Origin: Patescibacteria group bacterium
GTDB taxonomy: Bacteria; Patescibacteriota; Minisyncoccia; Moranbacterales; UBA2206
DNA length: 64,000 nucleotides
Direction of reading: 5' to 3'
Assembly: GCA_022709735.1 (NCBI GenBank)
Contig: JAKLIG010000005.1
Span: 5,884-69,883 of the forward strand
Shown: positions 30,624-63,183 of the stretch, piece after piece
Layout of the letters: every line of letters starts with the position of its first letter
Numbering within the stretch: the first letter of the stretch is position 1
Notes under the pieces: model-generated
What the model saw: the letters and a program-made list of their open reading frames with translations, nothing else
Told to the model about the DNA's origin: nothing
Databases searched by the model: none
Program-made: the position numbers and the translations under genes

Positions 30624-30653
30624 CTTCCCAGAAGCTAAAAGCTAAAAGCTAAA
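30624..30653. repeat. (AGCTAAA)x4 heptamer microsatellite upstream of manC
   Basis: Same unit as the arrays at 59661 and 14188, in reverse orientation. Confidence 0.8.
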
Positions 30654-30661
30654 AGCTAGTT

Positions 30662-48428: not shown

Positions 48429-48624
48429 TTTTTAAATAAGCTTTTATTTCTTTTGCATTATCTTTATCCATTTTTTCAATTGCAAATCCGGCATGTACCA
48501 TTACATAGTCGCCAATTTTTGCCGAAATTAGACTAATATTTATTTCTTTTTTCATGCCTTGAAAATCAACTATTGCCAGTTGATTTTTGATTTTTATTAT
48601 TTTTCCAGGAATTGCCAAACACAT
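48418..48624 (-). CDS. hypC: Hydrogenase assembly chaperone HypC
   Basis: Starts MCLAIPGKII. The ORF-track N-terminal extension (MQGCSILFLL...) is encoded by repeat element D1. Confidence 0.8.
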   Translation of the reverse strand: MCLAIPGKIIKIKNQLAIVDFQGMKKEINISLISAKIGDYVMVHAGFAIEKMDKDNAKEIKAYLKNEV

Positions 48625-48660
48625 GCCAATTTTGTCTGCGAACATAGTGAGCAGGAACAA

Positions 48661-48788
48661 AATTGAGCATCCCTGCACTAATTCACAAATTAAACTTTTT
48701 ATTAAAATATAACTAAGCCGTAGGCGATTCCGTGGAATAATTTTTACATTAAATAAAATCTCTATTCGGAATTAGTGCGGGATCGCCA
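48661..48788. repeat. Intercistronic repeat family D, copy D1 (about 125 bp, terminal inverted repeats GCATCCCTGCACTAATTC ... GAATTAGTGCGGGAT)
   Basis: Aligns along its length with 62470-62598 (D2). Both have 15-17-bp terminal inverted repeats and an internal AGCCGYAGGCGAATTC core. Confidence 0.7.
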
Positions 48789-48794
48789 GTCAAC

Positions 48795-49832
48795 TCACAA
48801 ACGAATTTTTCCTGTCTTTATCTTCTCCTTATCCCTAACCAGTCTTGCCACTTCCCTTTCAGAAAGCACATAATCTAAAAACTCGTTTTTATTTTTCTTT
48901 TTGTATATTTTGGAAGAGATGAAAAATACTGCGATGTCAGCTGGATTTATTTTTTCTTGCTTCGCATAATCAGTTTTAATTTGCTTTATAATTTCATCTT
49001 CGTTATCTTTGTCCTTTTCTGATAAACTTATAATTTTCTCAAAACCTAAATTAATTAGCAATTTATTCAAATCTTTCTCCGGGCTTATGCCAATTTTAAT
49101 TTGCTCTAATATTTTTTCTTCTATCCCAAAATCCAAAACTGCTACAGAAAATTTCTTGAGATCATCTAGTGTTTCTACAATTTCCCCATAATTATTTTGA
49201 TCCATAAGCGAAGCAGTCGGGCAAACTCGAACGCACTCCCCACAAAAACTGCAATCCAAAACTTTTTCATAAGGCGTCCCGACCACAATGTCACTTCCTC
49301 TGTGATTAAACCCAAAAGCTTTTTCTGGACAAACATTTATGCACTTCCGGCATTCCACGCAAAATTCGCTGTTTCTGGAAATGCATGGGTTTTCATTTTC
49401 CACTACGACTCTTGTCCAGTTGTCGCGTATCAAATCTAGCTCTTCCTGGCCAGTTATCTCGCCCTTTCTCGGAATAAAATGAAAATTTTCAATTTTATAT
49501 TCCTCGGCCAAACTTTGCAATTTGCACATTCGGTTTTTCTTGCAAGTCGCGCATTTTCCGGCATGATCTGCCCAAAGCAGTTCCAAATTAATTCTCCTAG
49601 CCTTGTCTATATTCTCGCTTTCGGTAATAATTTCCATCCCTTCCGCCACTTTCGTGTTGCAGGATGTCATTAATTTTCCATTAATTTCCACCACGCAAAT
49701 TCGGCATAATCCTTCCTGAAATTCTTTGCTCGAACACAAAGTGGGAATTTTTATTCCATTATTTTTACAAACTTTAAATATCCCCTCTCCCTCTTTCGCT
49801 TCGTAAATTTTATTGTTGATTTTTATTTCCAT
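48795..49832 (-). CDS. Iron-sulfur subunit resembling NuoG N-terminus / HoxU (2Fe-2S + His-ligated 4Fe-4S + two 4Fe-4S ferredoxin motifs), no H-cluster domain
   Basis: Cys patterns C..C...C (2Fe-2S), HAGKCATCKKNRMC, CVECRKCINVCP, CSFCGECVRVCP. The C-terminal about 110 aa has no cysteines. Confidence 0.65.
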   Translation of the reverse strand: MEIKINNKIYEAKEGEGIFKVCKNNGIKIPTLCSSKEFQEGLCRICVVEINGKLMTSCNTKVAEGMEIITESENIDKARRINLELLWADHAGKCATCKKNRMCKLQSLAEEYKIENFHFIPRKGEITGQEELDLIRDNWTRVVVENENPCISRNSEFCVECRKCINVCPEKAFGFNHRGSDIVVGTPYEKVLDCSFCGECVRVCPTASLMDQNNYGEIVETLDDLKKFSVAVLDFGIEEKILEQIKIGISPEKDLNKLLINLGFEKIISLSEKDKDNEDEIIKQIKTDYAKQEKINPADIAVFFISSKIYKKKNKNEFLDYVLSEREVARLVRDKEKIKTGKIRL

Positions 49833-51061
49833 ATTTTTAATTTTTCCACTGCGTCTTGAAACGCAGTTGCCGAAAATTTTCCCAGCGGGCAAAATGTAGT
49901 ATTATTCAGCGTCCACAAAATATCTTTAACCGCTTCTTTGTCTCTATCAGAAATTTTATTGTCCCGAAATCTTTTAGCAATTTCCCAAAGCCTAAAAGTT
50001 CCTTCCCGGCACGGCACGCATTTCCCGCAGGATTCCCGCCGAAAAAAATCCGTCCAAGAAATCAGAAGGTCGTGAATATTCACACTTTTATCAACCACTA
50101 AAATTGAACCGGAACCCATTTGTACGGACAGGTCGCGACCTGTCCCTACGCTGAAATTTAATTTTGCATCCAATTCTTTTTCCAAAAACAATTTTCCGCA
50201 TGCTCCGCCAATTTGCGCAAACCAAAATTCTTTTCCCTTTTGAATTCCGCCAGCATATTCTTCAATTAATTCTTTGACTGTTATCCCGGTCGGTGCTTCA
50301 TAAACTCCCGGATTCTTGACTGCTCCGCTTAGAATAAATAATTTTGTCCCAGGCGAATTTTTCGCGCCAATCTTTGCATATTCTTTTCCGCCCTGCAAAA
50401 TTATCCAGGGAATATTAGAAATAGTTTCGGCATTATTCACTGCTGTCGGACAACCAAATAATCCAGCCTGGGTAGGATAAGGCGGACGGTATTTTGGTTC
50501 TCCACGATTGCCTTTGATGGAGTTTATAAGCGCCGTTTCCTCTCCGCAGATATAAGCCCCGGCGCCAGAAAAAATTTCAATTTCCAAATTATATTCTGAA
50601 CCTAAAATATTTTCTCCCCAATATTTTTTTTCTTTGGCCTGCTCTATCGCTCTTTCCAAAATTTCTTTTTGTTTTTCAAAATTTCCATTAATATAGATAT
50701 AAGCGCGTTTCGCACCAATAGAAAGCGCGGAAATTATTATTCCTTCCAAAAGCAAATGTGGATTATTATCTACGATTAATCTATCTTTGTATGTTCCCGG
50801 TTCTGATTCTTCCAAGTTGCAGATAAAATATTTTTCCGCTTTAGGATTATTTGCTACCGACTCTAATTTATTTCCAGTTGAAAAGCCCGCTCCTCCTCTT
50901 CCGCAAAGCCCGGATTTTTTAATTTCTTCCACCACTTCTTCCGGTTTCATTTTCGAAATAAATTTTCCAAGCGCTTCATATCCGCCAACTCCAAGATAGT
51001 CTTCTATTTTTAGAGGATCTATTTTTCCCCAGTGTTCAGTTATGATTTTTATATCTTTCAC
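49823..51061 (-). CDS. NuoF/HoxF-like flavoprotein subunit (NADH-binding, FMN, 4Fe-4S)
   Basis: GLCGRGGAGFSTGNK, FMN/NADH motifs, and a C-terminal CGKCVPCREG cluster motif. GTG start. Confidence 0.8.
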   Translation of the reverse strand: MKDIKIITEHWGKIDPLKIEDYLGVGGYEALGKFISKMKPEEVVEEIKKSGLCGRGGAGFSTGNKLESVANNPKAEKYFICNLEESEPGTYKDRLIVDNNPHLLLEGIIISALSIGAKRAYIYINGNFEKQKEILERAIEQAKEKKYWGENILGSEYNLEIEIFSGAGAYICGEETALINSIKGNRGEPKYRPPYPTQAGLFGCPTAVNNAETISNIPWIILQGGKEYAKIGAKNSPGTKLFILSGAVKNPGVYEAPTGITVKELIEEYAGGIQKGKEFWFAQIGGACGKLFLEKELDAKLNFSVGTGRDLSVQMGSGSILVVDKSVNIHDLLISWTDFFRRESCGKCVPCREGTFRLWEIAKRFRDNKISDRDKEAVKDILWTLNNTTFCPLGKFSATAFQDAVEKLKIWK

Positions 51062-51062
51062 A

Positions 51063-51170
51063 GAATTTTTAATTTTATAATTTTATAATTTTTAAATAAT
51101 TTCTAATGCTAAAATTTTTAAACATTAAAAATTAATATTTATTTATAAAATTAAAAATTCAAAAATTACA
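51063..51170. repeat. Intercistronic AT-rich repeat family A/B, copy A (about 105 bp) between the NuoE-like and NuoF-like genes
   Basis: About 92% identical over about 100 bp to 58258-58372. It begins 2 nt from the NuoF-like start codon. Confidence 0.7.
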
Positions 51171-51175
51171 AAATT

Positions 51176-51589
51176 TTACAAATATTCTTCCAAAATATCC
51201 CGTAGCTTGCTCAAATTAACTTTTTCATAAATTTTTCCATTCACAATCATAATTGGCCCCTCGCCACATTTCCCCAAACAACTTATTTCTTCTGCTTTTA
51301 TTTTGAATGAATTTTCAATTTCTCTGATTATTTCAAAAGAATTGTTGACCGCGCAATTGGCCGAAGAACACACTTGAATCAAAATTTGCGGTTGTTTTTT
51401 TGTTTTTACTAAATCATAAAAACTGGCCGTTTCAAAAACTTTACTTTGGGGGATAGAAAAATAACCAGCGATTTTCTGCGCATCTTCTTCGCTCACATAA
51501 CCAAAAGTGGCGCTAGTTTTTTTTAGCGCCGGAAGTAAATTTTCTACTTTAGGTTCAAATTCCAGAAGTATTTTTTGTATTGTTTGCAT
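51176..51589 (-). CDS. NuoE/HoxE-like thioredoxin-fold 2Fe-2S subunit
   Basis: CSSANCAVNNS ... CLGKCGEGP four-Cys pattern. The likely start is MQTIQKI (51589). Confidence 0.7.
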   Translation of the reverse strand: MQTIQKILLEFEPKVENLLPALKKTSATFGYVSEEDAQKIAGYFSIPQSKVFETASFYDLVKTKKQPQILIQVCSSANCAVNNSFEIIREIENSFKIKAEEISCLGKCGEGPIMIVNGKIYEKVNLSKLRDILEEYL

Positions 51590-51603
51590 AATTTCATACG
51601 GCG

Positions 51604-51686
51604 ACCCGAATTTACAAATGAACACTCGAATGATTCGAATGAATTCGGGACATTCGGATGAAGATTCGAGTTATTCGAGTCGCTTA
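51604..51686. repeat. Intercistronic repeat family C, copy C1 (about 80 bp) between fba stop and NuoE-like start
   Basis: About 90% identical to 60772-60852 and 61214-61293. Its end overlaps the fba stop codon. It lies 15 nt upstream of the downstream ATG, as the other two copies do. Confidence 0.75.
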
Positions 51687-52547
51687 AGCTTTGTCTTCGC
51701 TTCCAAAATATTTTATTTTCTGCTTAACCACTTCCTCGACTGCTTCTCTCGCTTCTTCCAAAAGCTTTCGAATATCAAAAGAAACTTCTTCTTTTTTTGC
51801 AGAGTTTATTATTCGATCGACAAAGGCCATTCTAATTGCCGTATCAACATTAAGACAACTTATTCCTCTTTTTATCACTTCCGCCACTTTTCCATTTTCC
51901 CAATCTGATGCGCCATGAAGAATGAGAGGAATACCTCCGCAAAGTTCATTTATCTTGCTCAGTCTTTCAAAATCCGGCTCTGATCTCTCTCTCACAAATC
52001 CATGCGCATTTCCAATCGCCACTGCCAGCGCGTCTATTCCGGTTTCTTTCACAAATCTTTCCGCTTCGTTTGGATCAGTCATATATTTTTCCCAATTTAT
52101 CTCCCGACTTCCTGCTTCTCCAAGATACGGAACGCTACCCAATTCTCCCTGAACATCGATTCCTTTTTCATGACAGAAATCAACAACTTTTTTTGTTGCT
52201 TCAACATTATCTTCATATTTTTTTCGCGAACCGTCATACATAACTGAAGTTAGACCAATTTCAGCGCAATGCTGGATAATTTCAAAACTTTTTCCGTGAT
52301 CAAGATGAATGCCGACTGGAATTTCTGGCGCATAAAATTCAACATCATTTTTTACTAAATGATAAATTAATCTGCCACCAGCATATTCCATGGTTTTTTC
52401 AGTAATCTGGATAATCACCGGCGAATGCATTTTTTTAGCCGCATCCACAATTGCTCTGGTCGTTTCTAAATTAACTGTGTTAAACGCTCCGACAGCGTAT
52501 CCTCCTTCTTTAGCTTTGGTTAGAATTTCTTTGACTGAAGTAATCAT
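51684..52547 (-). CDS. fba: Class II fructose-bisphosphate aldolase
   Basis: YAVGAFN, HLDHG, Zn ligands and the class II FBA/TBA fold. The likely start is MITSVKEIL. Confidence 0.8.
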   Translation of the reverse strand: MITSVKEILTKAKEGGYAVGAFNTVNLETTRAIVDAAKKMHSPVIIQITEKTMEYAGGRLIYHLVKNDVEFYAPEIPVGIHLDHGKSFEIIQHCAEIGLTSVMYDGSRKKYEDNVEATKKVVDFCHEKGIDVQGELGSVPYLGEAGSREINWEKYMTDPNEAERFVKETGIDALAVAIGNAHGFVRERSEPDFERLSKINELCGGIPLILHGASDWENGKVAEVIKRGISCLNVDTAIRMAFVDRIINSAKKEEVSFDIRKLLEEAREAVEEVVKQKIKYFGSEDKA

Positions 52548-52555
52548 ATTTTTTA

Positions 52556-53320
52556 TTAATTTATTATCTCTGCTATTTTTATAAACTCGTGCGGGGTCAA
52601 ACTTTCTCTTCCTACAAGAACTCCATCCAGCCCTGGTTTCAAACAAACTTGATCAACATTCAAAGAAGAAACGGAACCGCCATAAATAATTTTCACTTTT
52701 TCTGCATATTTTACTCCGAAAAGACCGGAGAGAATTTTTCGAATCAAAACTTTTGCTTCCATAATTTCATTTTCCGTAGGAATGACATCAGTTCCAACCG
52801 ACCAAATTGGTTCATAGGCAATGATAATATTTTCCGCTTTTGTCCGACTGATTTTTTCCAAAGCATTCTTGACTTGCTGACTGATAATTTTTAGCGTCTG
52901 TCCGCTATCTTTTTCTACCTTGGATTCTCCGACACAAATAATTGGCATGAGTCTATTCTTGAGCGCGGAAATAATTTTAAAATTTATTTCTTCATCCCGT
53001 TCACAAAAATATCTCCTTCTTTCGCTGTGCCCGACTATCACATATTCGCAACCAAAATTCTTAAGCATCAATGGAGAAATTTCTCCAGTATATGATCCTT
53101 TTTCTTCCCAAAACATATTTTGAGCACCAATTTTTGTTTTTTTTATTTTAGCTTTTTCAAATCCTTCCAGATGGATAGCCGGCGGGCAAAGAACAATTTC
53201 ACAATTTTTTATTTTTTTTCCGGCCAATTCTTTTTGAAAAAGTTCCAAATATTGGTCTCGCTCTGTCTTGGACAGTATATTCATTTTTAAGTTAGCTACG
53301 ATTATTTTATTCATTTTCAT
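52556..53320 (-). CDS. tpiA: Triosephosphate isomerase
   Basis: ANLKMN, VGHSERR, AYEPIWSVGTD. Confidence 0.85.
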   Translation of the reverse strand: MKMNKIIVANLKMNILSKTERDQYLELFQKELAGKKIKNCEIVLCPPAIHLEGFEKAKIKKTKIGAQNMFWEEKGSYTGEISPLMLKNFGCEYVIVGHSERRRYFCERDEEINFKIISALKNRLMPIICVGESKVEKDSGQTLKIISQQVKNALEKISRTKAENIIIAYEPIWSVGTDVIPTENEIMEAKVLIRKILSGLFGVKYAEKVKIIYGGSVSSLNVDQVCLKPGLDGVLVGRESLTPHEFIKIAEIIN

Positions 53321-53933
53321 TTTTTCTTATATTAATATGTCTTTTTATAAACCAAATAACTCCGACTAAAATTATTATCCCAATAATCAAATCGAATTTA
53401 TGAAAATATACGCCTAAAGTATTCCAGTTCTCTCCTAATTTTTCCCCGATATAGGCCAAAAGAAAACAAAAAGGAAATGAACCTAAGAATGTATAGGTGA
53501 TAAACTGCCAGAAATTCATTCGAGCAATTCCGGCTGGAAGTGAAATAAAAGTTCGAACAACCGGAAGAAGGCGAGAAATAAAAACTGCCGTGTTCCCATA
53601 TTTTTTGAAAAAATTATCCGCGATATCTAAATCATGCTTTGTTACCAGGACATATCGCCCGTATTTTTCAGCCAGTGGCCGTCCGCCGATATAGCCAATC
53701 CAATAAGCTAAAATTGAACCAATCACGCAACCGATTGCTCCGGCCAGAGATACTCCTAAAAGCGAAAATTGCCCTTTGAAAACTAGGTATCCAGAAAAAG
53801 GCATAATTATTTCAGAAGGTAGCGGAATGCAAGCTGATTCAATCGCCATCATCAAAGCCACGCCGGAATATCCCAAGAGAGAAATTCCCCAAATTATAAA
53901 ACTAGCTAAAATTTCAATTATTTTTGCAACCAT
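53307..53933 (-). CDS. DedA-family (VTT/SNARE-associated domain) membrane protein
   Basis: ESACIPLPSEIIMPFSGYLV motif with about 5 TM segments. Length 208 aa. Confidence 0.7.
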   Translation of the reverse strand: MVAKIIEILASFIIWGISLLGYSGVALMMAIESACIPLPSEIIMPFSGYLVFKGQFSLLGVSLAGAIGCVIGSILAYWIGYIGGRPLAEKYGRYVLVTKHDLDIADNFFKKYGNTAVFISRLLPVVRTFISLPAGIARMNFWQFITYTFLGSFPFCFLLAYIGEKLGENWNTLGVYFHKFDLIIGIIILVGVIWFIKRHINIRKNENE

Positions 53934-54943
53934 TAATTTTCTCTTAAAAATTCTGACGCTTCTTCCGGATTCATTGTGATAATTTCAATGCCGGTTGAAA
54001 TTTCAAATCCCGCCCAAATATTCAATTTTGGCAGAATTTCTATATGCCAGTGGAAATGCGGATAATCTTTGCCGTCGCAAGGAGAAGTATGGATATAGAA
54101 ATTAAAATCCGGATTATTAAGTTTCTCACTCAATCTTTTTATCGCTTCGTGAAGCGCTTCGCCTCCTGAAATTTTTTCTTTTTCGCTTATTCTTTCAAAA
54201 TACGGCTTGTGTTTTTTCGGGATAACCCACATTTCAAAATTTGATCTCGATGCAAACGGACAGAAAAGCAAGAAGTCATCGTTTTCAAAAACTATTCTTT
54301 TTTTATGTTCCATTTCCCATTCAATCATCGCACAATAAGCGCAATGTTTGTTTTGCCGGTGATATTTTTCTGCGCCGTCCAATTCGCTTTCAACATAAGG
54401 CGAGATTACCGGAATAGCAATCAGCTGGGAATGCGGATGAGTAATGGATGCTCCGGCCGACGCTCCGTGATTGTGGAAAATATCAATGTAATTTACCGAC
54501 TTTTTATTCATGAGATCAATATATCTCGACTGATAGGCATCCAAAATTTCAGCCACCCCCAGCGGTTCCATTTTCCCAATATGATCATAGTGATCTTTTG
54601 TCACAATTACTTCATGATAACCGATTGAGTCCATCCAAAAATATGGCCCCTCTTCTTTATGTTTGATTTGTCCGCCGGAAGGCCTTGAGAAAGCCGGGAA
54701 CTTATTGGGAAAAACTCGAAGGCTCCAATCATTATCCGTTGTATTATAAATCAAAACATCCTTTTCTTGGCCACTCGCTTCGGGATTGCAAAACAAACAA
54801 TCATTCGGATTTTCTTCGATTAATTCTTTTTCTTTTTTAATGAATTCGTCCGGACGGCGCGAGCGGATTTTGGAAACGACTACCCAATCCCCCGTTACCA
54901 AATCTTGCCGAAGTTCTGAAATTTTATTTTTTTCCTCCTTCAC
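53933..54943 (-). CDS. Galactose-1-phosphate uridylyltransferase (GalT)-family HIT-like nucleotidyltransferase
   Basis: N-terminal CLFCNPE zinc-site cysteines, and HxHxQ in ITHPHSQLIAIP. Confidence 0.6.
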   Translation of the reverse strand: MKEEKNKISELRQDLVTGDWVVVSKIRSRRPDEFIKKEKELIEENPNDCLFCNPEASGQEKDVLIYNTTDNDWSLRVFPNKFPAFSRPSGGQIKHKEEGPYFWMDSIGYHEVIVTKDHYDHIGKMEPLGVAEILDAYQSRYIDLMNKKSVNYIDIFHNHGASAGASITHPHSQLIAIPVISPYVESELDGAEKYHRQNKHCAYCAMIEWEMEHKKRIVFENDDFLLFCPFASRSNFEMWVIPKKHKPYFERISEKEKISGGEALHEAIKRLSEKLNNPDFNFYIHTSPCDGKDYPHFHWHIEILPKLNIWAGFEISTGIEIITMNPEEASEFLREN

Positions 54944-54967
54944 TTTTATTTTATTTTAAAATTATTT

Positions 54968-55735
54968 TTATTTTTCAAATTCGCTCATTTTTTTATTGAG
55001 CTGATAAACTCCTCGCACCTTATTCCACCAAACCTTGAATAATTCTCGAAATGTAATAAGATAACCCTTGATTCCAACCAAACTATTTCCCATATCCAGC
55101 CATTCGACCGGCACTTCTTCTATTTTGTAGCCTAATTTTTTCGCGATCATCAAAATTTCAAAATCAATTCCCCAGCGATCAACTTTTGTCCGCGGAAAAA
55201 CTTCTTTCACCACTTCTTCTTTGAAAGCTTTGAAACCGCATTGCGTATCATAAATTCCATACAGTCCCATCATAATTTGAATCAAAATATTTCCAGCATT
55301 CCCCATCCATTCTTTCCATTTTGGCTGGTGTTTTTTTATGCTCGAAGCCTTAAGATCTCTTGAACCAATTACTATGTCGGTCTCTTTGAATTTTGGAATA
55401 AAATTATCCAAATTATCAATTGGCGTTGCGCCGTCCATATCAGTCCAGATCACCCATTCTCCTTTAGCCATTGCAAATCCTTCTCGAATACTATAGCCCT
55501 TGCCCTTATTTTCTTTTCTGTCGATTATTCTAAAGTTAGGTTTATTCTTAATTTTATCTCTGACTATTTCCGCTGTTTTGTCAGTTGGCCCGTCCAGCGC
55601 AATTATGACCTCATAACTCTTCCCTATTTTTTCAAAATAACTTTTAATAGAGTTGAGATGATCCTCCATTTCTTTTTCTTTTGGCGCTTCGTTGTAGGTT
55701 GGAATAACTACAGATATAAATGGTTTCTGTTCCAT
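54968..55735 (-). CDS. Family 2 glycosyltransferase (dolichyl/polyprenyl-phosphate glycosyltransferase-like)
   Basis: ISVVIPTYNE ... ALDGPTDKT ... DMDG motifs. Length 255 aa. Confidence 0.7.
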   Translation of the reverse strand: MEQKPFISVVIPTYNEAPKEKEMEDHLNSIKSYFEKIGKSYEVIIALDGPTDKTAEIVRDKIKNKPNFRIIDRKENKGKGYSIREGFAMAKGEWVIWTDMDGATPIDNLDNFIPKFKETDIVIGSRDLKASSIKKHQPKWKEWMGNAGNILIQIMMGLYGIYDTQCGFKAFKEEVVKEVFPRTKVDRWGIDFEILMIAKKLGYKIEEVPVEWLDMGNSLVGIKGYLITFRELFKVWWNKVRGVYQLNKKMSEFEK

Positions 55736-55861
55736 TTTTCTTGTGGGTTAATGGTTATTTATTGACTATATTGTAGCATAGAATTGATGAATTATGAAGT
55801 ATGAATCAAGAATTAGGAATTTTAAAATTTTATTCATAATTCATGCTTCTTAATTCCTAAT

Positions 55862-56287
55862 TCATTTCTTGTCCAGCCAGCTTTGAAGAATAATCCTCGC
55901 CGCTTCCTGATCATCAAATCTTTTGACGCCTTTGACTTTTTTGGCAATTAAATTCGCCTGCGCCATTTTGGTCGTGAACATTTCATTTTGATATTCAATT
56001 TCCATCTTAGGCAAAGATTTTTTTATCATTTCTCCTAGCTTTTCGCCTTCGTAAACGACCTCTTTTTTATTTATATAGCTCGGCACACCGATAATAATCT
56101 TGGAAATATTTTCTTTTTGGATAATTTTCAGCAAATTTTCCAGAAAATTTTTGTCATTTTCCAGTGTATTATAGGCAAAAGCAATTTTAGTCTCAAAATC
56201 TGCCAAAGCCAAACCAACTTTGGCTTCTCCAAAATCTATACCGAGAATGTGGCTTATTTGAGGGTCATTTTGCTGGTCTATTGACAT
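55862..56287 (-). CDS. ruvX: RuvX/YqgF Holliday-junction-resolvase-like nuclease
   Basis: ILGIDFGEAKVGLALAD RNase-H-like motif. The likely start is MSIDQQ. Confidence 0.75.
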   Translation of the reverse strand: MSIDQQNDPQISHILGIDFGEAKVGLALADFETKIAFAYNTLENDKNFLENLLKIIQKENISKIIIGVPSYINKKEVVYEGEKLGEMIKKSLPKMEIEYQNEMFTTKMAQANLIAKKVKGVKRFDDQEAARIILQSWLDKK

Positions 56288-56377
56288 ATTAGTAAAATTA
56301 GCGTATAATTTAGAGTTAGTATTAAAGTAAAGAATGTTCCCTAACAACAATAATATAAATTAAAAAAGGGGTGGCTT

Positions 56378-56746
56378 ATGAAATTAACAGGATGGGTCTA
56401 TTTTCTGGTTTTGGGAGGATTATTTCTGCTCGCAGGGAATGCTGGCTTTTCTGAAGGTCATTCAGTATTCGGATGGTGCTATATAACACTCGGGGTAGTT
56501 GTATTATTTTTTCCTTTTATCCTGAGATTCATTCAATCGAAGGGGAAGAAAAAGTTTTTCTGGAAATCGCTCCGAGTAGTTGGCAGCGGGATTGTTATTT
56601 TTACTATTGGCATCGTGTCTTGTGTATATGATGTCAATAATATTTTTAACAATCTTTATATTCTTATGCTTATTGGAGTAGCTTGCATGCTTGGCATAGG
56701 AATATCGCTAATTGTAGTATCCTCCTGGAAGTTACAGGAGAGATAG
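56378..56746 (+). CDS. Hypothetical polytopic membrane protein (122 aa)
   Basis: RBS AAAAGGGGTGG and four hydrophobic segments. Confidence 0.5.
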   Translation: MKLTGWVYFLVLGGLFLLAGNAGFSEGHSVFGWCYITLGVVVLFFPFILRFIQSKGKKKFFWKSLRVVGSGIVIFTIGIVSCVYDVNNIFNNLYILMLIGVACMLGIGISLIVVSSWKLQER

Positions 56747-56799
56747 GATAAGTTCGCTTTGTGATCATTCAACAATGATTGTCACTGAGCTTATCCGAA

Positions 56800-56838
56800 A
56801 ACCGGGACATGTCTAGCAGTAGACCCCCGGTTTTTTTA
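56800..56838. terminator. Terminator hairpin (AACCGGG...CCCGGTT + T7) between convergent genes
   Basis: Read directly from the sequence. Confidence 0.65.
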
Positions 56839-57597
56839 TTTTCTTGTCAAAATCTCGCACCCTCCTTTTTTGACTAGCACTGTATCTTCAAAATGCGCGC
56901 TAAGTTTTCCGTCGTCCGTAATATATGTCCAACCATCCGCGCCTAATTTAATCCTAAACTTTCCTTCATTTATCATCGGCTCAAGCGCGAGCGTCATTCC
57001 TTCTTTGAGAATTATGTCTTTGACATTCCAGCGATAATTTGGAATCTGCGGATCTTCATGAAGAATTTTTCCAACGCCGTGTCCGACTAAATCGCGAATA
57101 ACAGAAAATCCAAAAGTGCGAACATAACTTTCAACTGCCTCGGAATATTCGCTAAGCTTTGCTCCGGCTCTAATTTTTGCAATTCCTTGATTCAACGCTT
57201 CCTGCGTCGCTTTCACTAACTTATGCGCTTCAAGACTCACTGTTCCAACAGGAAATGTGCGAGCCATATCAGTTATCATTCCCTTATATTCCATGCCAAT
57301 GTCAATTTTCACCAAATCGCCTTCTCGAATTATAATTTTTTCGCTCGGAATTCCATGCACCACTTCATTATTTATCGAAGCGCAAATTGTCGCAGGATAT
57401 GGATTATTTTTTTCTCCATAACCTTTGAAGGCAGGTTTGCCCCCATTATCAAAAACAAGTCTCTCCGCGAGCTTGTCTAGTTCCAATGTATTTATGCCCG
57501 GAGCAATTTTCTCTCCTATTTCTTCCATAATACCCGCCAAAATTTTCCCTCCCCGGCGCATTGATTCTATTTCATTTTGAGTTTTAATTACTACCAT
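56836..57597 (-). CDS. map: Methionine aminopeptidase type I
   Basis: Pita-bread fold motifs (VVHGIP..., DLVKIDIG, metal ligands D/D/H/E/E). Confidence 0.88.
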   Translation of the reverse strand: MVVIKTQNEIESMRRGGKILAGIMEEIGEKIAPGINTLELDKLAERLVFDNGGKPAFKGYGEKNNPYPATICASINNEVVHGIPSEKIIIREGDLVKIDIGMEYKGMITDMARTFPVGTVSLEAHKLVKATQEALNQGIAKIRAGAKLSEYSEAVESYVRTFGFSVIRDLVGHGVGKILHEDPQIPNYRWNVKDIILKEGMTLALEPMINEGKFRIKLGADGWTYITDDGKLSAHFEDTVLVKKGGCEILTRK

Positions 57598-58256
57598 ATT
57601 TTCTCTAATATATCCTCGAACACTTTTTCAATTTCCTGATCACCGTTAATTTCTGCTAACTTTCCTTCTTTTTTATAATATTCCACAATTGGCATCGTTT
57701 CTTCTTTGAATATCCCCAATCTTTTTTTCACACCTTCTTCACTGTCATCAATCCGCTGAATTATTTTCCCTCCACATTCATTGCCTGCCTGCCGGTAGGC
57801 ATGGCATTTTTCTCCTGCACTCTGAATATCTTTTCCTAGAATAAAAACTTTTTTGCATTTTTCACAAACTCTTCTTTTGGAGATTCTTTTGATTGATTCT
57901 TCCTTTGAAAGATTAATGGAAATAACTTTGTCTATTTTTCTTCCTGATTCTTTGATCGCTTCTTCAAAATAGCCAAGCTGATCAATGCTTCTCGGCACCC
58001 CATCAAAAACAATTCCTTGTTCTCTTGGAAGCCCTAATAATTTCAAATGGATCACTTCTCGTAATATTCTGTCGCTTACTAATTCTTTTTTAATGTTAAC
58101 GATTTCGTGAATTTCTTTTCCAAGCGGAGTTTCAAGAAGCGCTACCTCGCGCAAAAACTTTCCCATATCAATATGTTCCGCTTCAAATTTCTTTGCTAAT
58201 TTTTCCGCTTGCGTTCCTTTGCCGGAACCTTGCGGACCTAAAATTACTATATTCAA
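57591..58256 (-). CDS. adk: Adenylate kinase (with Cys4 LID zinc site)
   Basis: NIVILGPQGSGKGTQA P-loop; CEKCKK...C...C in the LID. Apparent TTG start. Confidence 0.85.
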   Translation of the reverse strand: MNIVILGPQGSGKGTQAEKLAKKFEAEHIDMGKFLREVALLETPLGKEIHEIVNIKKELVSDRILREVIHLKLLGLPREQGIVFDGVPRSIDQLGYFEEAIKESGRKIDKVISINLSKEESIKRISKRRVCEKCKKVFILGKDIQSAGEKCHAYRQAGNECGGKIIQRIDDSEEGVKKRLGIFKEETMPIVEYYKKEGKLAEINGDQEIEKVFEDILEKIW

Positions 58257-58257
58257 A

Positions 58258-58372
58258 AAATTTTATAATTTTATAATTTTATAATTTTTAAATAATTTTT
58301 AATGCCAAATTTTTAAACATTAGAAATTAAGATTTATTTATAAAATTAAAAATTGGAAATTAAAAATTCGAG
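58258..58372. repeat. Intercistronic AT-rich repeat family A/B, copy B (about 110 bp) between secY stop and adk start
   Basis: Aligns with 51063-51170. It contains one extra TTTTATAA unit. Confidence 0.7.
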
Positions 58373-58385
58373 CGAAGCGAGTTTT

Positions 58386-59657
58386 TCAAAATCCTTCGTA
58401 ATCCCTCATTACCAATTGTCCTTCAATTTGATTGATAAGTTCAATTACCACGGAAACTACGATCAAAAGTCCCGTGCCTCCAATTGAAACTGAACCGATG
58501 CTGGTAAAATTTTGAACAATGAAAGGCAAGACGGCAATGAGCCCAAGAAACACGGCGCCGGTGAGCGTCACGCGATTCATAATCCGAAAAAGATATTCGG
58601 AAGTATTTTTTCCCGGACGAATTCCCGGAACATATCCGCCTTGTTTTTGCAAATTTTCCGCAATTTTGTTGGGATCAAAAACTACCGCGGTATAAAAATA
58701 AGTGAAAGCTACAACTAGAACGAAATAAATTGCGCCGTAGAAAAATTGATTTTGGAAAAAATTTCCCACTGCGCGCGCAATTCCAGCAACTGTTCCATTG
58801 GAAGAGCTAGCCAAAAAATTTGCTACCATTCCTGGGAAAAGCATAATCGACATCGCAAAAATAATTGGGATAACTCCGGCTTGATTGATGCGAAGCGGAA
58901 GATGCGTGGAAGTTCCGCCATACATTCGGTTTCCTCGAATTCTCTTGGCATAAGAAATGGGAATATTTCTCTGCCCTTCCGTCATAAAAACCACTGCGCC
59001 AACCGCGCCAACTGTGATGGCTAAAAATATAATATAAGTGAAAAGTTGGGATGAATCCCAAGTGGAAACAATGCGGGAAATCGCTGAAGGCAAACTAGAA
59101 ACTATGCCGGCAAAGATAATAAGCGAAACTCCATTGCCGATTTTTTTTTCTGTAATCAACTCACCTAGCCACATCAGAAATATCGTTCCGGCCACAGCTA
59201 CAATTATAATTGAGGCTAGCCCAAACATACCTTCCGGCGCCATAATTTGTTGAGCACGAAAAAGCGACATCATACCAATTGTTTGAAGCGCCGCGAGAGG
59301 AACTGTGAGCCAGCGAGTCCATTGATTGAATTTTTCCCGGCCGGCTTCGCCTTCTTCCTTGTAGATTTGTTCGAGTCTCGGGCTAATCATTGTCATAAGC
59401 TGCATAATAATAGAAGAGGTAATGTATGGTCCGACTCCGAGCATCACGATTGAAATACTGGATAGTCCTCCGCCGGAAAAAAGATTAAGTAGCCCGAAAA
59501 ATTGATTGTTATCAAAAAACATCTTGAGTCTTTCCTGGTCAATTCCTGGTATAGGAATGTTGGCCGCCAGACGAAAAATTACCAAAAGCGCCAAGATAAA
59601 AAATATCTTGTTTCTTAGTTCTTTTACTTTGAAGATTTGGATTATTTTGTCAAACAT
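58386..59657 (-). CDS. secY: Preprotein translocase subunit SecY
   Basis: 10-TM SecY topology and motifs. Length 423 aa. Confidence 0.9.
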   Translation of the reverse strand: MFDKIIQIFKVKELRNKIFFILALLVIFRLAANIPIPGIDQERLKMFFDNNQFFGLLNLFSGGGLSSISIVMLGVGPYITSSIIMQLMTMISPRLEQIYKEEGEAGREKFNQWTRWLTVPLAALQTIGMMSLFRAQQIMAPEGMFGLASIIIVAVAGTIFLMWLGELITEKKIGNGVSLIIFAGIVSSLPSAISRIVSTWDSSQLFTYIIFLAITVGAVGAVVFMTEGQRNIPISYAKRIRGNRMYGGTSTHLPLRINQAGVIPIIFAMSIMLFPGMVANFLASSSNGTVAGIARAVGNFFQNQFFYGAIYFVLVVAFTYFYTAVVFDPNKIAENLQKQGGYVPGIRPGKNTSEYLFRIMNRVTLTGAVFLGLIAVLPFIVQNFTSIGSVSIGGTGLLIVVSVVIELINQIEGQLVMRDYEGF

Positions 59658-59660
59658 AAG

Positions 59661-59720
59661 TTAGCTTTTAGCTTTTAGCTTTTAGCTTTTAGCTTTCTCT
59701 ATAAGCTATAAGCTAACTCC
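59661..59720. repeat. Heptamer microsatellite (AGCTTTT)x5 followed by (TATAAGC) units
   Basis: GTTAGCTTTTAGCTTTTAGCTTTTAGCTTTTAGCTTTCTCTATAAGCTATAAGCTAAC. Confidence 0.85.
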
Positions 59721-60157
59721 TATAAGCTAATCTTGCTATTGGATTTTTCAATTGACTTTGAAAAGAGAATGCCTTTTTCAAAAGAAAGTTTCTTTGTAAT
59801 TTTCCCGCCACCGATAATTTTCACACCATTCTTTTTATTCTTTCTGTCAATTAAACCGGCCTGAATTAAAGTATCAATGCTTACAGTTTCTCCATCCTTG
59901 AATTTTTTTTCAATCTTGGAAAACTGGACTATATTCTTTTTTTCTTTTCTAGATTTGAAACCTCTATTTTTTTTCATGTGATCAATAAGCGTTGAGCGCC
60001 CGCCTTCAAATAAAGGATCAACATGCGCGCCACTTCGCGCCTTTTGCCCCTTGTTTCCCTTACCACAATATGTTCCCTTTTTTCCGCCTCGCCCGATAGT
60101 CTTTCTTTTTTTTCTTTTATTATTAAGTTTTAGATTATTAACTTGCATATTTTTCAT
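59720..60157 (-). CDS. rplO: 50S ribosomal protein L15
   Basis: GRGGKKGTYCGKGNKGQKARSG matches the uL15 signature. Confidence 0.8.
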   Translation of the reverse strand: MKNMQVNNLKLNNKRKKRKTIGRGGKKGTYCGKGNKGQKARSGAHVDPLFEGGRSTLIDHMKKNRGFKSRKEKKNIVQFSKIEKKFKDGETVSIDTLIQAGLIDRKNKKNGVKIIGGGKITKKLSFEKGILFSKSIEKSNSKISL

Positions 60158-60259
60158 TTACGAACTACGAAATGATCGAAATACGAAACGTTTTTAGATA
60201 TATTCTCGTATTAATTTTTCGTATTTTCGTATTTAGTATTAATTTCGTATTTCGTAAAA

Positions 60260-60757
60260 CTATTTCATTCTTTCTCCTCTTGTTTTTGAATCTTTAAGAA
60301 TTTTCAAAGCTTCAATGGTGGCTCTCGCAACATTCAGCTTGTTCGCTGTTCCTAGAGATTTTGAAACGATATCTTTTATTCCAGCCAAATCAATGACCGC
60401 TCGCACTGCACCTCCTGCCACGATTCCTCGTCCTTTCGGCGCTGGTTTCAAAATTATCTTAGCACTGCCTGATTTTATGAATATATCATGGCTAATCGTA
60501 TTTTTTTGAACATCAATGTTTATCATGTTCTTTTTGCCGTCATCAAAAGCTTTTTTGATTGCATCTGTCACATCAGCGCCTTTTCCGACTCCTACACCTA
60601 CTCGCCCTTTTTTATTGCCAATAACCAAAGTAGCGCGGAATCTAAATCTTCTTCCACCCTTAACCACGCGAGTGACTCTCGCTAAATCCAAAAGTTTTTG
60701 GTCATATTCCGGCTTTTCTCTTCTGCCTTTTGATCTTCGATTATTATCTCTTCCCAT
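60260..60757 (-). CDS. rpsE: 30S ribosomal protein S5
   Basis: dsRBD-like N-terminal and S5 C-terminal domains (VVKGGRRFRF...). Confidence 0.88.
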   Translation of the reverse strand: MGRDNNRRSKGRREKPEYDQKLLDLARVTRVVKGGRRFRFRATLVIGNKKGRVGVGVGKGADVTDAIKKAFDDGKKNMINIDVQKNTISHDIFIKSGSAKIILKPAPKGRGIVAGGAVRAVIDLAGIKDIVSKSLGTANKLNVARATIEALKILKDSKTRGERMK

Positions 60758-60771
60758 TTGATTTATGCGAC

Positions 60772-60852
60772 ACTAATTTACGAATGATCACTCGAATGTT
60801 TCGAATAAATTCGGGTCATTCGGGTGATAATTCGTATTATTCGAGTCGCTTT
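60772..60852. repeat. Intercistronic repeat family C, copy C2 (between L18 stop and S5 start)
   Basis: TAATTTACGAATGATCACTCGAATGTTTCGAATAAATTCGGGTCATTCGGGTGATAATTCGTATTATTCGAGTCGCTTT. Confidence 0.75.
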
Positions 60853-61199
60853 TAGAATTTTAATCCGCCCGTTCTTGCTCCTTCAGCCAGAGCTTTTATT
60901 TTTCCGTGATATTTATAACCGCTTCTATCATATACGACTTCATTAATTTTTTTCTCAAGACATTTTTTCGCTACCAATTCTCCGACGCTTTTCGCTCCTT
61001 CTAAATTATTTTTAGCTTTTTTTATTTCCTTAAGACTGGCAAAAACCAGCGTCTTTCCCTTGGTGTCATCAATTACTTGCGCCGATATTCCCTTAAGGCT
61101 TTTGAAAACTGAAAGTCGCGGTCTTTTAGCCTCGCCTTTAACTTTCGCCCTTACGCGTCTTTTTCGATGGAGTCTTAGATTGTTTCTACTTGTTTTCAT
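60852..61199 (-). CDS. rplR: 50S ribosomal protein L18
   Basis: uL18 N-terminal basic region and fold. Length 115 aa. Confidence 0.85.
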   Translation of the reverse strand: MKTSRNNLRLHRKRRVRAKVKGEAKRPRLSVFKSLKGISAQVIDDTKGKTLVFASLKEIKKAKNNLEGAKSVGELVAKKCLEKKINEVVYDRSGYKYHGKIKALAEGARTGGLKF

Positions 61200-61213
61200 A
61201 TAATTTATGCAAC

Positions 61214-61293
61214 CCTAATTTACGAATGAACACTCGAATTATTCGAATGAATTCGGGTCATTCGGGTGATAATTCGTGTCATTCGAGTCGCTT
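61214..61293. repeat. Intercistronic repeat family C, copy C3 (between L6 stop and L18 start)
   Basis: Near-identical to C2. It ends at the L6 stop codon and lies 15 nt upstream of the L18 ATG. Confidence 0.75.
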
Positions 61294-61837
61294 ATTTAAC
61301 GGCTCCCGCTTTTTTTCCAACTTTTCTTATAACTTTTTCTCCCTGATATCTGAATCCTTTTCCTTTATACGGTTCAACTTTCTTAAGCGCTCTAATGTTT
61401 GCGGTAAATTGTCCAACTTTTTGCTTGTCAAATCCAGAAATAGACAGCGTGTTATTTTCTTCAATTTTAACTGTCAGTCCTTCCGGAACAATTACTTCTA
61501 CCGGATGAGAAAATCCCAGCGCCATAACTAATTTCTTGCCCTGAAGAGACATTCGAAATCCCACGCCCTGAAGCTCCAATTTTTTCTCATAACCATTTTT
61601 TGCGCCAATAATCATATTATTCACCAGCGCCCGAGTGAGCCCCCAAAGCGCATTCGCTTCCTTGGAACTTCTAAGTGGAGAGGTTTTTATTTCTCCGTCA
61701 GCTATTTCCAATTTGATCTGGCGATTAACTTCCAAATTCAAAGTTCCCTTGGGGCCTTTTACTTCCAATTTATCACCTTCGAGTTTTACTTCAATCCCCT
61801 GCGGAATTGTAATTATTTTTTTTCCTATTTTTGACAT
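61292..61837 (-). CDS. rplF: 50S ribosomal protein L6
   Basis: Two uL6 alpha/beta repeats. The likely start is MSKIGKKIITIP. Confidence 0.85.
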   Translation of the reverse strand: MSKIGKKIITIPQGIEVKLEGDKLEVKGPKGTLNLEVNRQIKLEIADGEIKTSPLRSSKEANALWGLTRALVNNMIIGAKNGYEKKLELQGVGFRMSLQGKKLVMALGFSHPVEVIVPEGLTVKIEENNTLSISGFDKQKVGQFTANIRALKKVEPYKGKGFRYQGEKVIRKVGKKAGAVK

Positions 61838-61847
61838 AAATTTATGT

Positions 61848-62240
61848 TTACCAGACTTCGCAAATATATTCTCCACCTAAACCAAGTTTCCTTGATTCAC
61901 TGCCGGTCATTACTCCTTTAGAAGTAGAGAGAATAGCTGTGCCATAATTATTTTTAACATCCTTAATATCCTTATTTTTAATATAAATTCTCTGGCCCGA
62001 TTTACTGATTTTTCGCAGTCCCGTAATGGCCGGAATTTTTCTAGTCTTCGAAGCTTGATAATATTTCAGGGTTATTTTGATCAATCCTTCTTTCTCCATA
62101 GAAACTGCTTCTATGAAACCTTCCTTTTTTAATATTTCCGCCAAAGCAAATCTAAGCTTAGACGGTCTTATCACCGTTTCCTTTTGCCCAGCCATCTGAG
62201 CATTTCTTATTTTAGTTAGCATTTCAGAAATTTTGTCCAT
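61848..62240 (-). CDS. rpsH: 30S ribosomal protein S8
   Basis: MLTKIRNA... uS8 signature. Length 130 aa. Confidence 0.88.
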   Translation of the reverse strand: MDKISEMLTKIRNAQMAGQKETVIRPSKLRFALAEILKKEGFIEAVSMEKEGLIKITLKYYQASKTRKIPAITGLRKISKSGQRIYIKNKDIKDVKNNYGTAILSTSKGVMTGSESRKLGLGGEYICEVW

Positions 62241-62254
62241 AATTTATAAATTAA

Positions 62255-62440
62255 TTACCAACTGGCTTTTTTAACTCCTGGAATTTGTCCGGTACTGGCT
62301 AATTCTCGAAAACATATCCGGCAAAGATCAAAATGCCTCATATAGCCATGCTTTCTTCCGCACTTCCAACAACGCCTGACAATTCGGGTTGAAAATTTAG
62401 GTTTTTTTCGAGCTCTTGCTTCTGTTGATTTCTTTGCCAT
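62255..62440 (-). CDS. rpsN: 30S ribosomal protein S14 type Z (zinc-binding)
   Basis: 61-aa core MAKKST...[25 protein letters not shown]. The upstream extension in the ORF track is encoded by repeat D2. Confidence 0.82.
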
Positions 62441-62469
62441 AATTGTCTTCGAGCGGAGCGAGAAGCTAC

Positions 62470-62598
62470 AATTATGAGCATCCCGCACCAATTCACAGAT
62501 TAATTTTTCTATTACATCTTAGCTTAGCCGCAGGCGAATTCGCAATTTAAATTATACACTTTGTAAAATTTTAATTGGAATTGGTGCGGGATAGCCAT
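62470..62598. repeat. Intercistronic repeat family D, copy D2 (terminal inverted repeats GCATCCCGCACCAATTC ... GAATTGGTGCGGGAT)
   Basis: Aligns with 48661-48788. It lies between the L5 stop and the S14 start. Confidence 0.7.
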
Positions 62599-62616
62599 CT
62601 TTTTTCTTCTTTATTG

Positions 62617-63159
62617 TTATTTAACCTCCATCGGAAATCCTAATAATTTAAACAGGGTTAATCCTTTGGCTCTATCATGTGCATCCGTTACTATCGTCAC
62701 TTCCAAGCTGAAAATATTCTTAACTTCTTCCGGCAAAATTTCTGGAAAAATCAAATGCTCTTTTATCCCGATATTCAAATTCCCCGATGCATCCACTGCT
62801 GAATCCTTGAGCCCGTGAAAATCTTTCACGCGAGGAAGCGCTGCTTGGACTAATTTTTCCACAAAATTCCACATTCTTTCTCCGCGCAAAGTCACTTTCA
62901 TTCCAACTTCCAATCCTTCTCTTATTTTGAAACCAGCAATTGATTTTTTTGATTTGGTTGAGAGCGGTTTTTGACCAGTAATAGTCGAGATGGATTTTGC
63001 TATATCTTCAATCTGATTGGAATCTTTCAAAAATTTCCCCACTCCGACATTCACTACAACTTTTTTGATTCTTGGCACTTCTAAATCGTTGGAAAGATTG
63101 AATTCTTTCTTCATTTGAGGAACTACTTCTTTTTTATACTTTTCGCGAATACTATTCAT
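62617..63159 (-). CDS. rplE: 50S ribosomal protein L5
   Basis: uL5 fold. Length 180 aa. Confidence 0.88.
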   Translation of the reverse strand: MNSIREKYKKEVVPQMKKEFNLSNDLEVPRIKKVVVNVGVGKFLKDSNQIEDIAKSISTITGQKPLSTKSKKSIAGFKIREGLEVGMKVTLRGERMWNFVEKLVQAALPRVKDFHGLKDSAVDASGNLNIGIKEHLIFPEILPEEVKNIFSLEVTIVTDAHDRAKGLTLFKLLGFPMEVK

Positions 63160-63183
63160 GGGTTTTTTACTAATTACTAAATT

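Follow-up and report, generated by a model that had tools for sequence, protein, structure and literature searches.

A start-codon-associated hairpin element of about 160 nt in Moranbacteria, probably a mobile cassette

INTRODUCTION

The Correia/NEMIS elements of Neisseria and the ERIC elements of enterobacteria are inverted-repeat elements of 100–160 bp that are co-transcribed, form RNA hairpins and are possible RNase III substrates or effectors of mRNA stability; their inverted repeats are truly terminal, a target-site duplication is present (TA for Correia), and either orientation is found. REPINs consist of two conserved inverted REPs with ∼70–80 nt of less conserved spacer between them, form a long hairpin, and are extragenic, present in many copies and long-persisting (PMC3116915). 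MIRUs are small, apparently mobile repeats that lie within operons in co-orientation with transcription and are inserted at start codons, with expression of the downstream gene being kept (PMC12548453). Here, we describe an element for which no published description was found in the literature, and of which two copies, D1 (before hypC) and D2 (before the gene for ribosomal protein S14), are present in a 64,000-nt stretch of contig JAKLIG010000005.1 from a Patescibacteria group bacterium (assembly GCA_022709735.1), hereafter referred to as the window. At full length, the element covers ∼163 nt of the minus strand, which is the sense strand, and is composed of a helix, P1, and a hairpin, H2. D1 and D2 are probably copies of a non-autonomous mobile cassette of ∼160 nt that is specific to Moranbacteria, targets start codons and rebuilds the translation start of the gene that it precedes.

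The element is closest in logic to MIRUs, and closest in form to REPINs and MITEs. It shares with MIRUs the location within operons, the co-orientation with transcription and the position at start codons, whereas MIRUs are 46–101 bp in length, often tandem, and carry a small internal open reading frame (ORF) that overlaps the flanking stop and start codons; the present element occurs singly at each site, is palindromic and structured, holds the start codon in a hairpin, and resides in hosts of the candidate phyla radiation (CPR). A MIRU-style internal ORF was sought and rejected, as no reading frame is conserved, since the interior varies in length, and only occasional short ORFs run from an AUG in the H2 stem. 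As in a REPIN, two invariant inverted arms of 15 nt enclose a variable spacer of ∼80 nt in P1 and give a long hairpin. REPINs, in contrast, are placed regardless of start codons, have no second module resembling H2 and are tied to a RAYT gene, none of which was matched here by a crude regular expression in an incomplete sample of loci; the element in turn lacks a GTAG-type head sequence. With MITEs it has in common that it is short, non-coding and dispersed in many copies, with insertion polymorphism between related genomes. Compared with Correia/NEMIS and ERIC, its right repeat lies 45 nt internally, no consistent target-site duplication accompanies it, and its orientation is fixed. The element thus departs from MIRUs, REPINs and MITEs in at least one defining property each.

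Two further systems bear a partial likeness. In the MS2 coat-protein operator and in ribosomal-protein operators the start codon is located in a hairpin, and H2 resembles them in that its short stem, which has a bulged base and ends in a conserved loop, contains a start codon in its 3′ strand, although the element is mobile and precedes dozens of unrelated genes. Genomic islands that integrate into tRNA 3′ ends carry a copy of the target end, by which the interrupted gene is reconstituted. The element likewise terminates in ATGGC, and a native ATGGC apparently remains 5′ of the insertion; the element differs in measuring 160 nt rather than kilobases, in that neither an integrase nor att arms were identified, and in showing the ATGGC remnant in a minority of copies. 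Small palindromic repeats scattered through genomes are a familiar kind of sequence; what is unusual is a repeat locked to start codons in the sense orientation that donates the Met-Ala start of many essential genes, and a covarying structure that is kept across a whole CPR lineage.

RESULTS AND DISCUSSION

The two copies in the window

The first-pass annotation of the window, made from its sequence, had proposed a repeat of ∼125 bp with copies at 48661–48788 (D1) and 62470–62598 (D2). Both lie where proposed and are homologous, with ∼80% column identity on alignment and with scores of 157.7 bits (E 6e-33) for D1 and 166.9 bits (E 6e-35) for D2 against a covariance model (R1) built from 47 aligned copies from elsewhere. 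Neither R1 nor a second model of P1 alone (R2) detects a third copy in the window with filters off. The proposed size fell short of the copied unit, as homology extends 37–45 nt beyond the former low-coordinate limit, to 48624 in D1 and 62435 in D2; this additional stretch is the second hairpin, H2, which had been overlooked and which reaches the start codons of hypC and S14. The inverted repeats of terminal type are present in both copies as described. On the plus strand, D2 carries ATCCCGCACCAATTC at 62480–62494 and its complement at 62578–62592, whereas D1 carries ATCCCTGCACTAATTC at 48669–48684, with one extra base, and GAATTAGTGCGGGAT at 48769–48783. The common core had been given as AGCCG(T/C)AGGCGAATTC, which is exact for D2; D1 reads AGCCGTAGGCGATTCC. 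On the minus strand, D2 runs in the order UGGCU-P1-interior-P1-H2 and ends in AUGGCA. The parts of both copies are as follows.

62435–62597, minus strand: D2, full element, between L5 (stop codon 62617–62619) and S14; R1 match
62593–62598, minus strand: ATGGCT directly 5′ of D2, after a spacer similar to the one that natively precedes S14 at the empty sites of L079 and L190
62578–62592, minus strand: D2, 5′ arm of P1 (AUCCCGCACCAAUUC), from pairing and covariation
62526–62536, minus strand: D2, core CGCCUGCGGCU with a mini-hairpin GCC/GGC inside P1; near-invariant columns in alignments of 47 and 92 sequences
62480–62494, minus strand: D2, 3′ arm of P1 (GAAUUGGUGCGGGAU), its final U being common to H2
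62435–62480, minus strand: D2, H2 (UGC-U-CAUAAUUGU ... ACAAUUAUG-GCA), from RNAalifold and pair counts
48624–48788, minus strand: D1, full element, between a NuoG-like gene (stop codon 48795–48797) and hypC; R1 match
48769–48783, minus strand: D1, 5′ arm of P1 (AUCCCGCACUAAUUC), with U/A at the single covarying position matched in the 3′ arm
48716–48726, minus strand: D1, core CGCCUACGGCU, from alignment columns
48669–48684, minus strand: D1, 3′ arm of P1 (GAAUUAGUGC-A-GGGAU) with a bulged A, which elsewhere occurs in either arm
48624–48669, minus strand: D1, H2 (UGC-U-CAAUUUUGU ... ACAAAAUUG-GCA), with the stem triplet UUG and not AUG

In the above, three-digit L numbers designate collected loci, as distinct from ribosomal proteins such as L5. 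The Pfam gene order is NuoE, NuoF, NuoG-like, D1, HypC, HypD and HypE at the first site, and L5, D2, S14 and S8 at the second, in agreement with the placement between cistrons of minus-strand operons that had been noted. No sense-strand promoter or terminator was found inside D1 or D2. In D2, the S14 start codon (62438–62440) and the second codon, GCA, both lie within the 3′ strand of H2, an arrangement designated type i. In D1, the hypC start codon (48622–48624) begins with the final A of H2, and the HypC Pfam match extends from 48624; this arrangement is designated type ii. The mechanically called ORFs 48418–48678 and 62255–62491 run into D1 and D2, respectively, and their N-terminal extensions are thus artefactual, as had been suspected. 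Public gene calls (JGI contig Ga0116154_10000225; L001 10543–10920, equivalent to window 62240–62617) omit the 61-aa S14 gene after D2, which is intact and matches Pfam Ribosomal_S14. For annotation, the element therefore conceals short genes such as S14 and creates false N-terminal extensions.

A family confined to Moranbacteria

The searches yielded more than 200 copies, all of them Moranbacteria (CPR) sequences from either genomes or metagenomes, in accord with the expectation that the window would not hold the only ones. Seventy-five metagenome loci match the exact two-arm pattern, and at least 119 genome loci match a pattern of the 3′ arm and the bases that follow; R1 confirms ∼110 copies among the first 100 genome loci, with more elsewhere. 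The assemblies of all model-confirmed loci are Moranbacteria, Parcubacteria or Patescibacteria metagenome-assembled genomes (MAGs), and the ribosomal-protein operon of the window itself is ∼80% identical to that of a Candidatus Moranbacteria MAG (L079). The model did not bear out 20-mer matches in Paenibacillus, Hymenobacter, Pirellulales and Lewinellaceae, nor one exact 20-mer match in a viral contig (L197), which is taken as a chance match. Copies can be dense, with four in 4.9 kb (L131) and five in 3.5 kb (L179). Rfam 15 gave no match at the gathering threshold across the window, and noise or nothing for both copies at E ≤ 10; the element has no Rfam entry, and the present covariance models could seed one.

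Both hairpins are supported by covariation

The arms of P1, AUCCC(A)GCACYAAUUC and GAAUURGUGC(A)GGGAU, pair over 13–15 bp, which upholds the long intercistronic hairpin that the inverted repeats had been predicted to form. They are almost invariant except for one C-G/U-A switch and a bulged A in either arm. Additional compensated changes in P1 are seen in the genome set, where the 5′ arm lay outside the search pattern, and in diverged relatives that consist of P1 only, several pairs have changed with compensation. The interior of P1 is AU-rich, ∼80 nt in size and variable in length, with a conserved CGCCUNCGGCU core that, written in full, is the near-invariant (C)GGAAUCGCCU-N-CGGCUUAG; the core loop is enlarged by an additional hairpin in L015, L051 and L065. 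One closing pair aside (G22:C54 or A22:U54), the folding of the interior does not surpass that of shuffled sequence. An apparent preference for the sense strand in raw folding energies of the interior disappeared against shuffles (z near 0 on both strands), and the likeness of the core CCUGCGGCU to the 3′ strand of 16S helix 45, noticed by eye, amounts to a match of 8/9 positions that is about what chance would give.

H2 adjoins P1 without a linker and comprises 12 + 4 bp, with GACAAAAAUGGCA as its 3′ strand. Its base is formed by 3 bp, UGC/GCA, which covary to CGC/GCG and CAC/GUG; above the base are a bulged U, 9 AU-rich bp, a 2-nt bulge and a 4-bp inner stem that is capped by a terminal loop of 9–11 nt (UCG...CUC). 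RNAalifold and pair counts reveal changes on both sides in 13 of the 16 H2 pairs. For the structure as a whole, 97.6% of cells are paired and 14 pairs have changed on both sides, a result matched by none of 500 shuffles, and pairing falls to about 40% if partners are slid by 1–3 columns. Some copies hold optional GC-rich hairpins in the internal loop of H2 and others whole P1-like hairpins in its terminal loop, and this loop differs between otherwise identical copies. Against shuffles, H2 folds with z −3.7 on the bottom strand and z −3.0 on the sense strand. A·C mismatches are present and G·U pairs almost absent in the sense strand of H2; P1 is symmetric.

Start codons occupy two fixed positions

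The start codon of the downstream gene lies at one of two fixed positions in 82 of 93 non-redundant copies. In type i (49/93), it is the AUG inside the H2 stem and the encoded N-terminus is Met-Ala, extended to Met-Ala-Lys in 33 cases; in type ii (33/93), the AUG begins with the final A of H2 (GC-AUG). A later start, up to 40 nt downstream, is used in five copies, and the remaining six are ambiguous or truncated. The stem triplet of type ii copies is still AUG in 10 of 33, and is otherwise UUG, AUU, AUC or UCG, each accompanied by a compensating change in the 5′ strand, as would be expected if ribosomes recognised a stem AUG that is out of frame. An ORF of four codons (MAKL*) starts at the stem AUG of L082, and its stop overlaps the start of L24. 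Proteins encoded with and without the element differ in the corresponding manner: L4 begins with MKISVY where the element is absent and MAKISVY where it is present, and L3 with MK, MTK or MSK as opposed to MAK or MATK.

Almost all copies are oriented in the sense direction with respect to the downstream gene. In each of several loci of 8 kb, copies on opposite strands each face their own gene (L158, L141, L174 and L151), and orientation therefore follows the gene and not the replication strand. The preceding ORF on the same strand ends at a median distance of 16 nt from the element, and within 30 nt in 52 of 82 copies; however, 18 of 82 are more than 100 nt from any such ORF, which indicates that an upstream cistron is not required. 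The downstream genes encode the ribosomal proteins L3, L4, L6, L11, L14, L16, L23, L24, L27, L28, L29, L36, S3, S5, S7, S13, S14, S17 and S19, other growth-related proteins (SecY, EF-Ts, NusG, NusB, GroEL and MreB), and proteins of unrelated function (HypA, HypC, GyrB, UvrA, MurA, GAPDH, pilin-like proteins and others), some of these assignments being backed by tblastn or Pfam and the remainder made from N-termini by eye.

A loose match to a Shine-Dalgarno sequence precedes only 8 of the 54 long ORFs in the window, and starts are preceded by AT-rich sequence without the motif (e.g. 63160–63189, 62241–62270 and 59658–59687). This is in agreement with the report that the anti-Shine-Dalgarno motif is often missing in a subgroup of Parcubacteria (PMC9297842). 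The gene downstream of a diverged P1-only relative in L129 (∼1010–1030) has AAGGAGG located 7 nt before its ATG, and thus not every Moranbacteria gene does without a Shine-Dalgarno site. The element provides a concrete and testable entry into the choice of start codons without Shine-Dalgarno sequences in bacteria that are barely tractable.

Filled and empty sites

Whereas D2 occupies the S14 site of the window, L079 and L190 have no element there, their gaps between L5 and S14 measuring 34 and 9 nt, respectively. Both loci are ∼80% identical to the window, and both contain an element in the gap between L15 and secY, where the window has a simple repeat. Orthologous loci free of the insertion, which the earlier proposal had called for, are thus at hand. 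As the empty sites are also without H2, P1 and H2 must have arrived together. Across the S10-spc region of 30 loci, surveyed with strict detection such that some sites scored as empty hold diverged copies, occupancy is 7/11 for L3, 5/12 for SecY, 5/17 for S14 and 4/16 for L16; S3, L14 and L4 are also occupied, with single cases at L23, S19, L24, L6 and S5, whereas no element was detected before EF-Tu, S10, L5 or S8 in these loci. The comparison of related genomes shows gain and loss of copies at different genes.

Paralogues with near-identical interiors and unrelated flanks point to recent copying (L158/L172, 100%; L100/L191, 98%; L035/L061, 95%). Their identity spans (T)ATCCC to GGCATG, which places the right inverted repeat 45 nt inside the unit, and shows the copied unit as running from (U)AUCCC to AUGGCA. 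Target-site duplications, which a MITE would have led one to expect at the borders, are absent at these three pairs, and no correlation between 5′ and 3′ flanks was found across copies. The description of the element as MITE-like therefore holds for a dispersed, mobile sequence bounded by inverted repeats, and does not hold for the missing target-site duplication, the internal right repeat and the fixed orientation.

The 5′ border of some copies carries what appear to be traces of the invaded gene. The ATGGCT directly 5′ of D2 is likely a remnant of the S14 start that existed before insertion. ATGGCn is found 5′ of the element in 7 of 43 type i copies compared with none of 33 type ii copies (p = 0.017), and GGCn in 14 of 43 compared with 6 of 33. 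Many element-free orthologues keep GACAAAA-ATGGCA before the gene, and these sequences may be footprints of lost copies. Decay was observed in a copy of L131 (∼1459–1530), where an internal deletion joins the 5′ arm region to GACAAAAATGGCA, in a copy of L061 (1622–1786), in which the 5′ strand of H2 is unpaired and which still precedes an intact L29, and in a degenerate copy of L179 (3348–3512) located 57 nt upstream of an intact one.

A wider set of hairpins shares the arms of P1

R2 also detects P1-only relatives with covarying arms that follow promoter-like boxes and are placed as leaders would be (L059, L073, L129, L080, L058 and L038), as well as plain long hairpins with the arm motif CCC(C/G)CAC(C/T)AA(T/C)TT (L081, L138, L096, L084, L044, L071 and L065). 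Hairpins with P1-like arms are nested in the H2 terminal loops of L009, L012, L055, L175 and L106. The nested hairpins of L009 (950–1188 and 7–226) are flanked by perfect direct repeats, CTTCG (5 bp) and (G)CTCG (4–5 bp), which look like target-site duplications, and three hairpins that stand alone have TTGA in both flanks. The layout of this set, a pair of conserved inverted sequences around a variable spacer, is that of REPINs (PMC3116915), and it lends some real support to the MITE-like reading for the P1 module.

Weighing the explanations

For a start-codon-targeting cassette, the reading to which we assign the greater probability, the unit TATCCC...ATGGC would insert either on the 3′ side of a native (A)TGGC or immediately before an ATG, D2 being the clearest case of insertion just after a native ATGGC. 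The element would bring a new start, after which the old one would decay, and since it would carry its own A-rich AUG-GCA initiation region the downstream gene would be translatable without a Shine-Dalgarno sequence, with the operon transcript being neither terminated nor re-promoted by the insertion. The invariant arms of P1 most likely serve, by analogy with REPINs, as a recognition hairpin for a putative mobilising or binding protein, and H2 may be needed either as a DNA hairpin for mobilisation or as an RNA for start-site presentation or mRNA stability. Such a cassette would show mobile DNA living in the most conserved operons (ribosomal-protein, groEL and secY) without breaking them.

Several observations weigh against this account. 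The strand test does not show the sense RNA as the selected fold, and burying the start codon in a hairpin of about −13 kcal/mol should hinder initiation where Shine-Dalgarno sites are lacking. Gene conversion among copies already in place could likewise account for the near-identical paralogues. Conservation of orthologous copies equals that of adjacent coding DNA (83–90% in the interior against 72–93% in the flanks), decayed copies are few, and the arms and core of P1 hardly vary within the whole clade, which together suggests a function at the level of the host that goes beyond tolerance. Part of the arm conservation is by construction, as the collection patterns required both arms (metagenomes) or the 3′ arm and GCU (genomes), and decayed copies are for the same reason under-sampled. 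Neither a transposase, a RAYT nor another partner was found with a crude HUH-Y1 regular expression (HUH...Y..N[PQ]) in an incomplete sample of 1.5 Mb, and no arm pairs enclosing an ORF, as expected of an autonomous version, were present in 1.5 Mb of loci, a search that is uninformative in that the outer 5′ arm is variable.

A role in regulation or in RNA processing would agree with a good part of the observations. A cis-regulatory RNA is a tentative possibility, in which P1 would be a sensor or binding domain and H2 an expression platform that hides the start, the copies of a single housekeeping regulon having spread secondarily. The sense orientation, the fixed distance to the AUG, and a start that lies in a covarying stem containing a bulged U and topped by the conserved UCG...CUC loop are all consistent with such an RNA, as are the near-invariant arms and core of P1, orthologous copies conserved like coding DNA, optional hairpins at fixed peripheral sites, and the P1-only relatives (L059, L073 and L129) that stand just after promoter-like boxes, 8–50 nt before starts. 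Most of the downstream genes serve growth (ribosomal proteins, EF-Ts, NusG, NusB, GroEL, SecY and MreB), but as a set that also includes HypA, HypC, UvrA, GyrB, MurA, GAPDH and pilin-like genes they are functionally incoherent; moreover, carrier genes differ between close relatives, paralogues that are 100% identical precede unrelated genes, no competing pairing that could release H2 was seen, the interior gives no folding signal beyond that of shuffled sequence, and the copy with a degenerate H2 in L061 is still followed by an intact L29. Doubtful, in our estimate, is a portable initiation or control RNA module that would mark or gate housekeeping starts via a factor binding P1/H2, and would spread by pairing of UGC-U-CAU with the AUG-GCA of the invaded gene; if true, CPR bacteria would possess a new class of global cis-acting RNA, and the mode of insertion, directed at start codons, would be new as well. 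A leader specific to one gene, be it a ribosomal-protein operator of the spc operon or a leader of the hyp operon with the similarity of D1 and D2 being incidental, is scarcely credible. At the orthologous site, the hypC copy is indeed kept in L066, with 90% identity in the interior, and also in genomes that are more distant; L077/L100, L018, L064, L110 and L143 likewise have it there. D1 thus also behaves like the conserved leader that the first-pass annotation had raised as an alternative (L066 and L077/L100); this does not apply to D2, which is absent from S14 in close relatives, and the element occurs before more than 30 different gene families, a distribution that rules out an S14-specific ribosomal-protein operator.

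RNA-processing 'punctuation', in which cleavage of P1 by a double-strand-specific RNase would part the cistrons, with H2 then protecting the 5′ end of the downstream mRNA, can be likened to phage T7 intercistronic sites and rRNA intervening sequences, and would suit a helix of at least 13–15 bp with conserved sequence that abuts a second helix at the 5′ edge of a cistron, the intercistronic position in long operons, the lack of a detected terminator or promoter, and the recurrence of the arm motif in plain long hairpins after genes and in 5′ leaders. We judge it unlikely, as such sites normally need neither an invariant primary sequence nor a copy-and-paste history, the two exact start-codon positions and the donation of Met-Ala are left unexplained, and 18 of 82 copies are far (>100 nt) from an upstream ORF on the same strand. 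Quite improbable is a classical MITE, consisting of P1 only (∼125 bp), moved by a DDE transposase with target-site duplication, and associated with H2 as a pre-existing sequence or passenger. The terminal-looking 15-bp inverted repeats, the wider set of hairpins with a common arm motif and different interiors, the hairpins nested in H2 loops (with perfect direct repeats in L009) and the three flanked by TTGA would all fit a MITE, as would 'GCT', by which P1 is bracketed in about 29% of copies. Empty orthologous sites are nevertheless without H2, recent paralogues have H2 in common and no target-site duplication, orientation is non-random, no autonomous element was seen, and the flanking repeats are inconsistent in length (0, 2, 4 or 5 bp).

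Other repeats in the window

A second intercistronic family consists of a CGAAT-rich long hairpin of 97 nt (GCGAC...GUCGC) at window positions 61200–61291 (L6/L18), 60758–60851 (L18/S5) and 51589–51685 (near the nuoE region), the copies being mutually 79–90% identical. A third, ACGAAA-rich family occurs once in the window, at 60158–60259 (S5/L15), and five times in the orthologous operon of L190 (971–1112, 4333–4423, 4721–4836, 5379–5478 and 6816–6943), which is a further case of gain and loss of small repeats inside the ribosomal-protein operon. Two copies of a palindrome of ∼115 nt made up almost entirely of A and T are located at 58257–58385 (SecY/Adk) and 51057–51171. Heptamer repeats, (AGCTAAA)n or (AGCTTTT)n, are intergenic at 59662–59695, 30632–30658 and 14178–14215, and one of these occupies the L15/secY gap that is filled by the element in relatives. 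Finally, three tandem units of 213 nt with 77–82% identity are found at 40656–41300.

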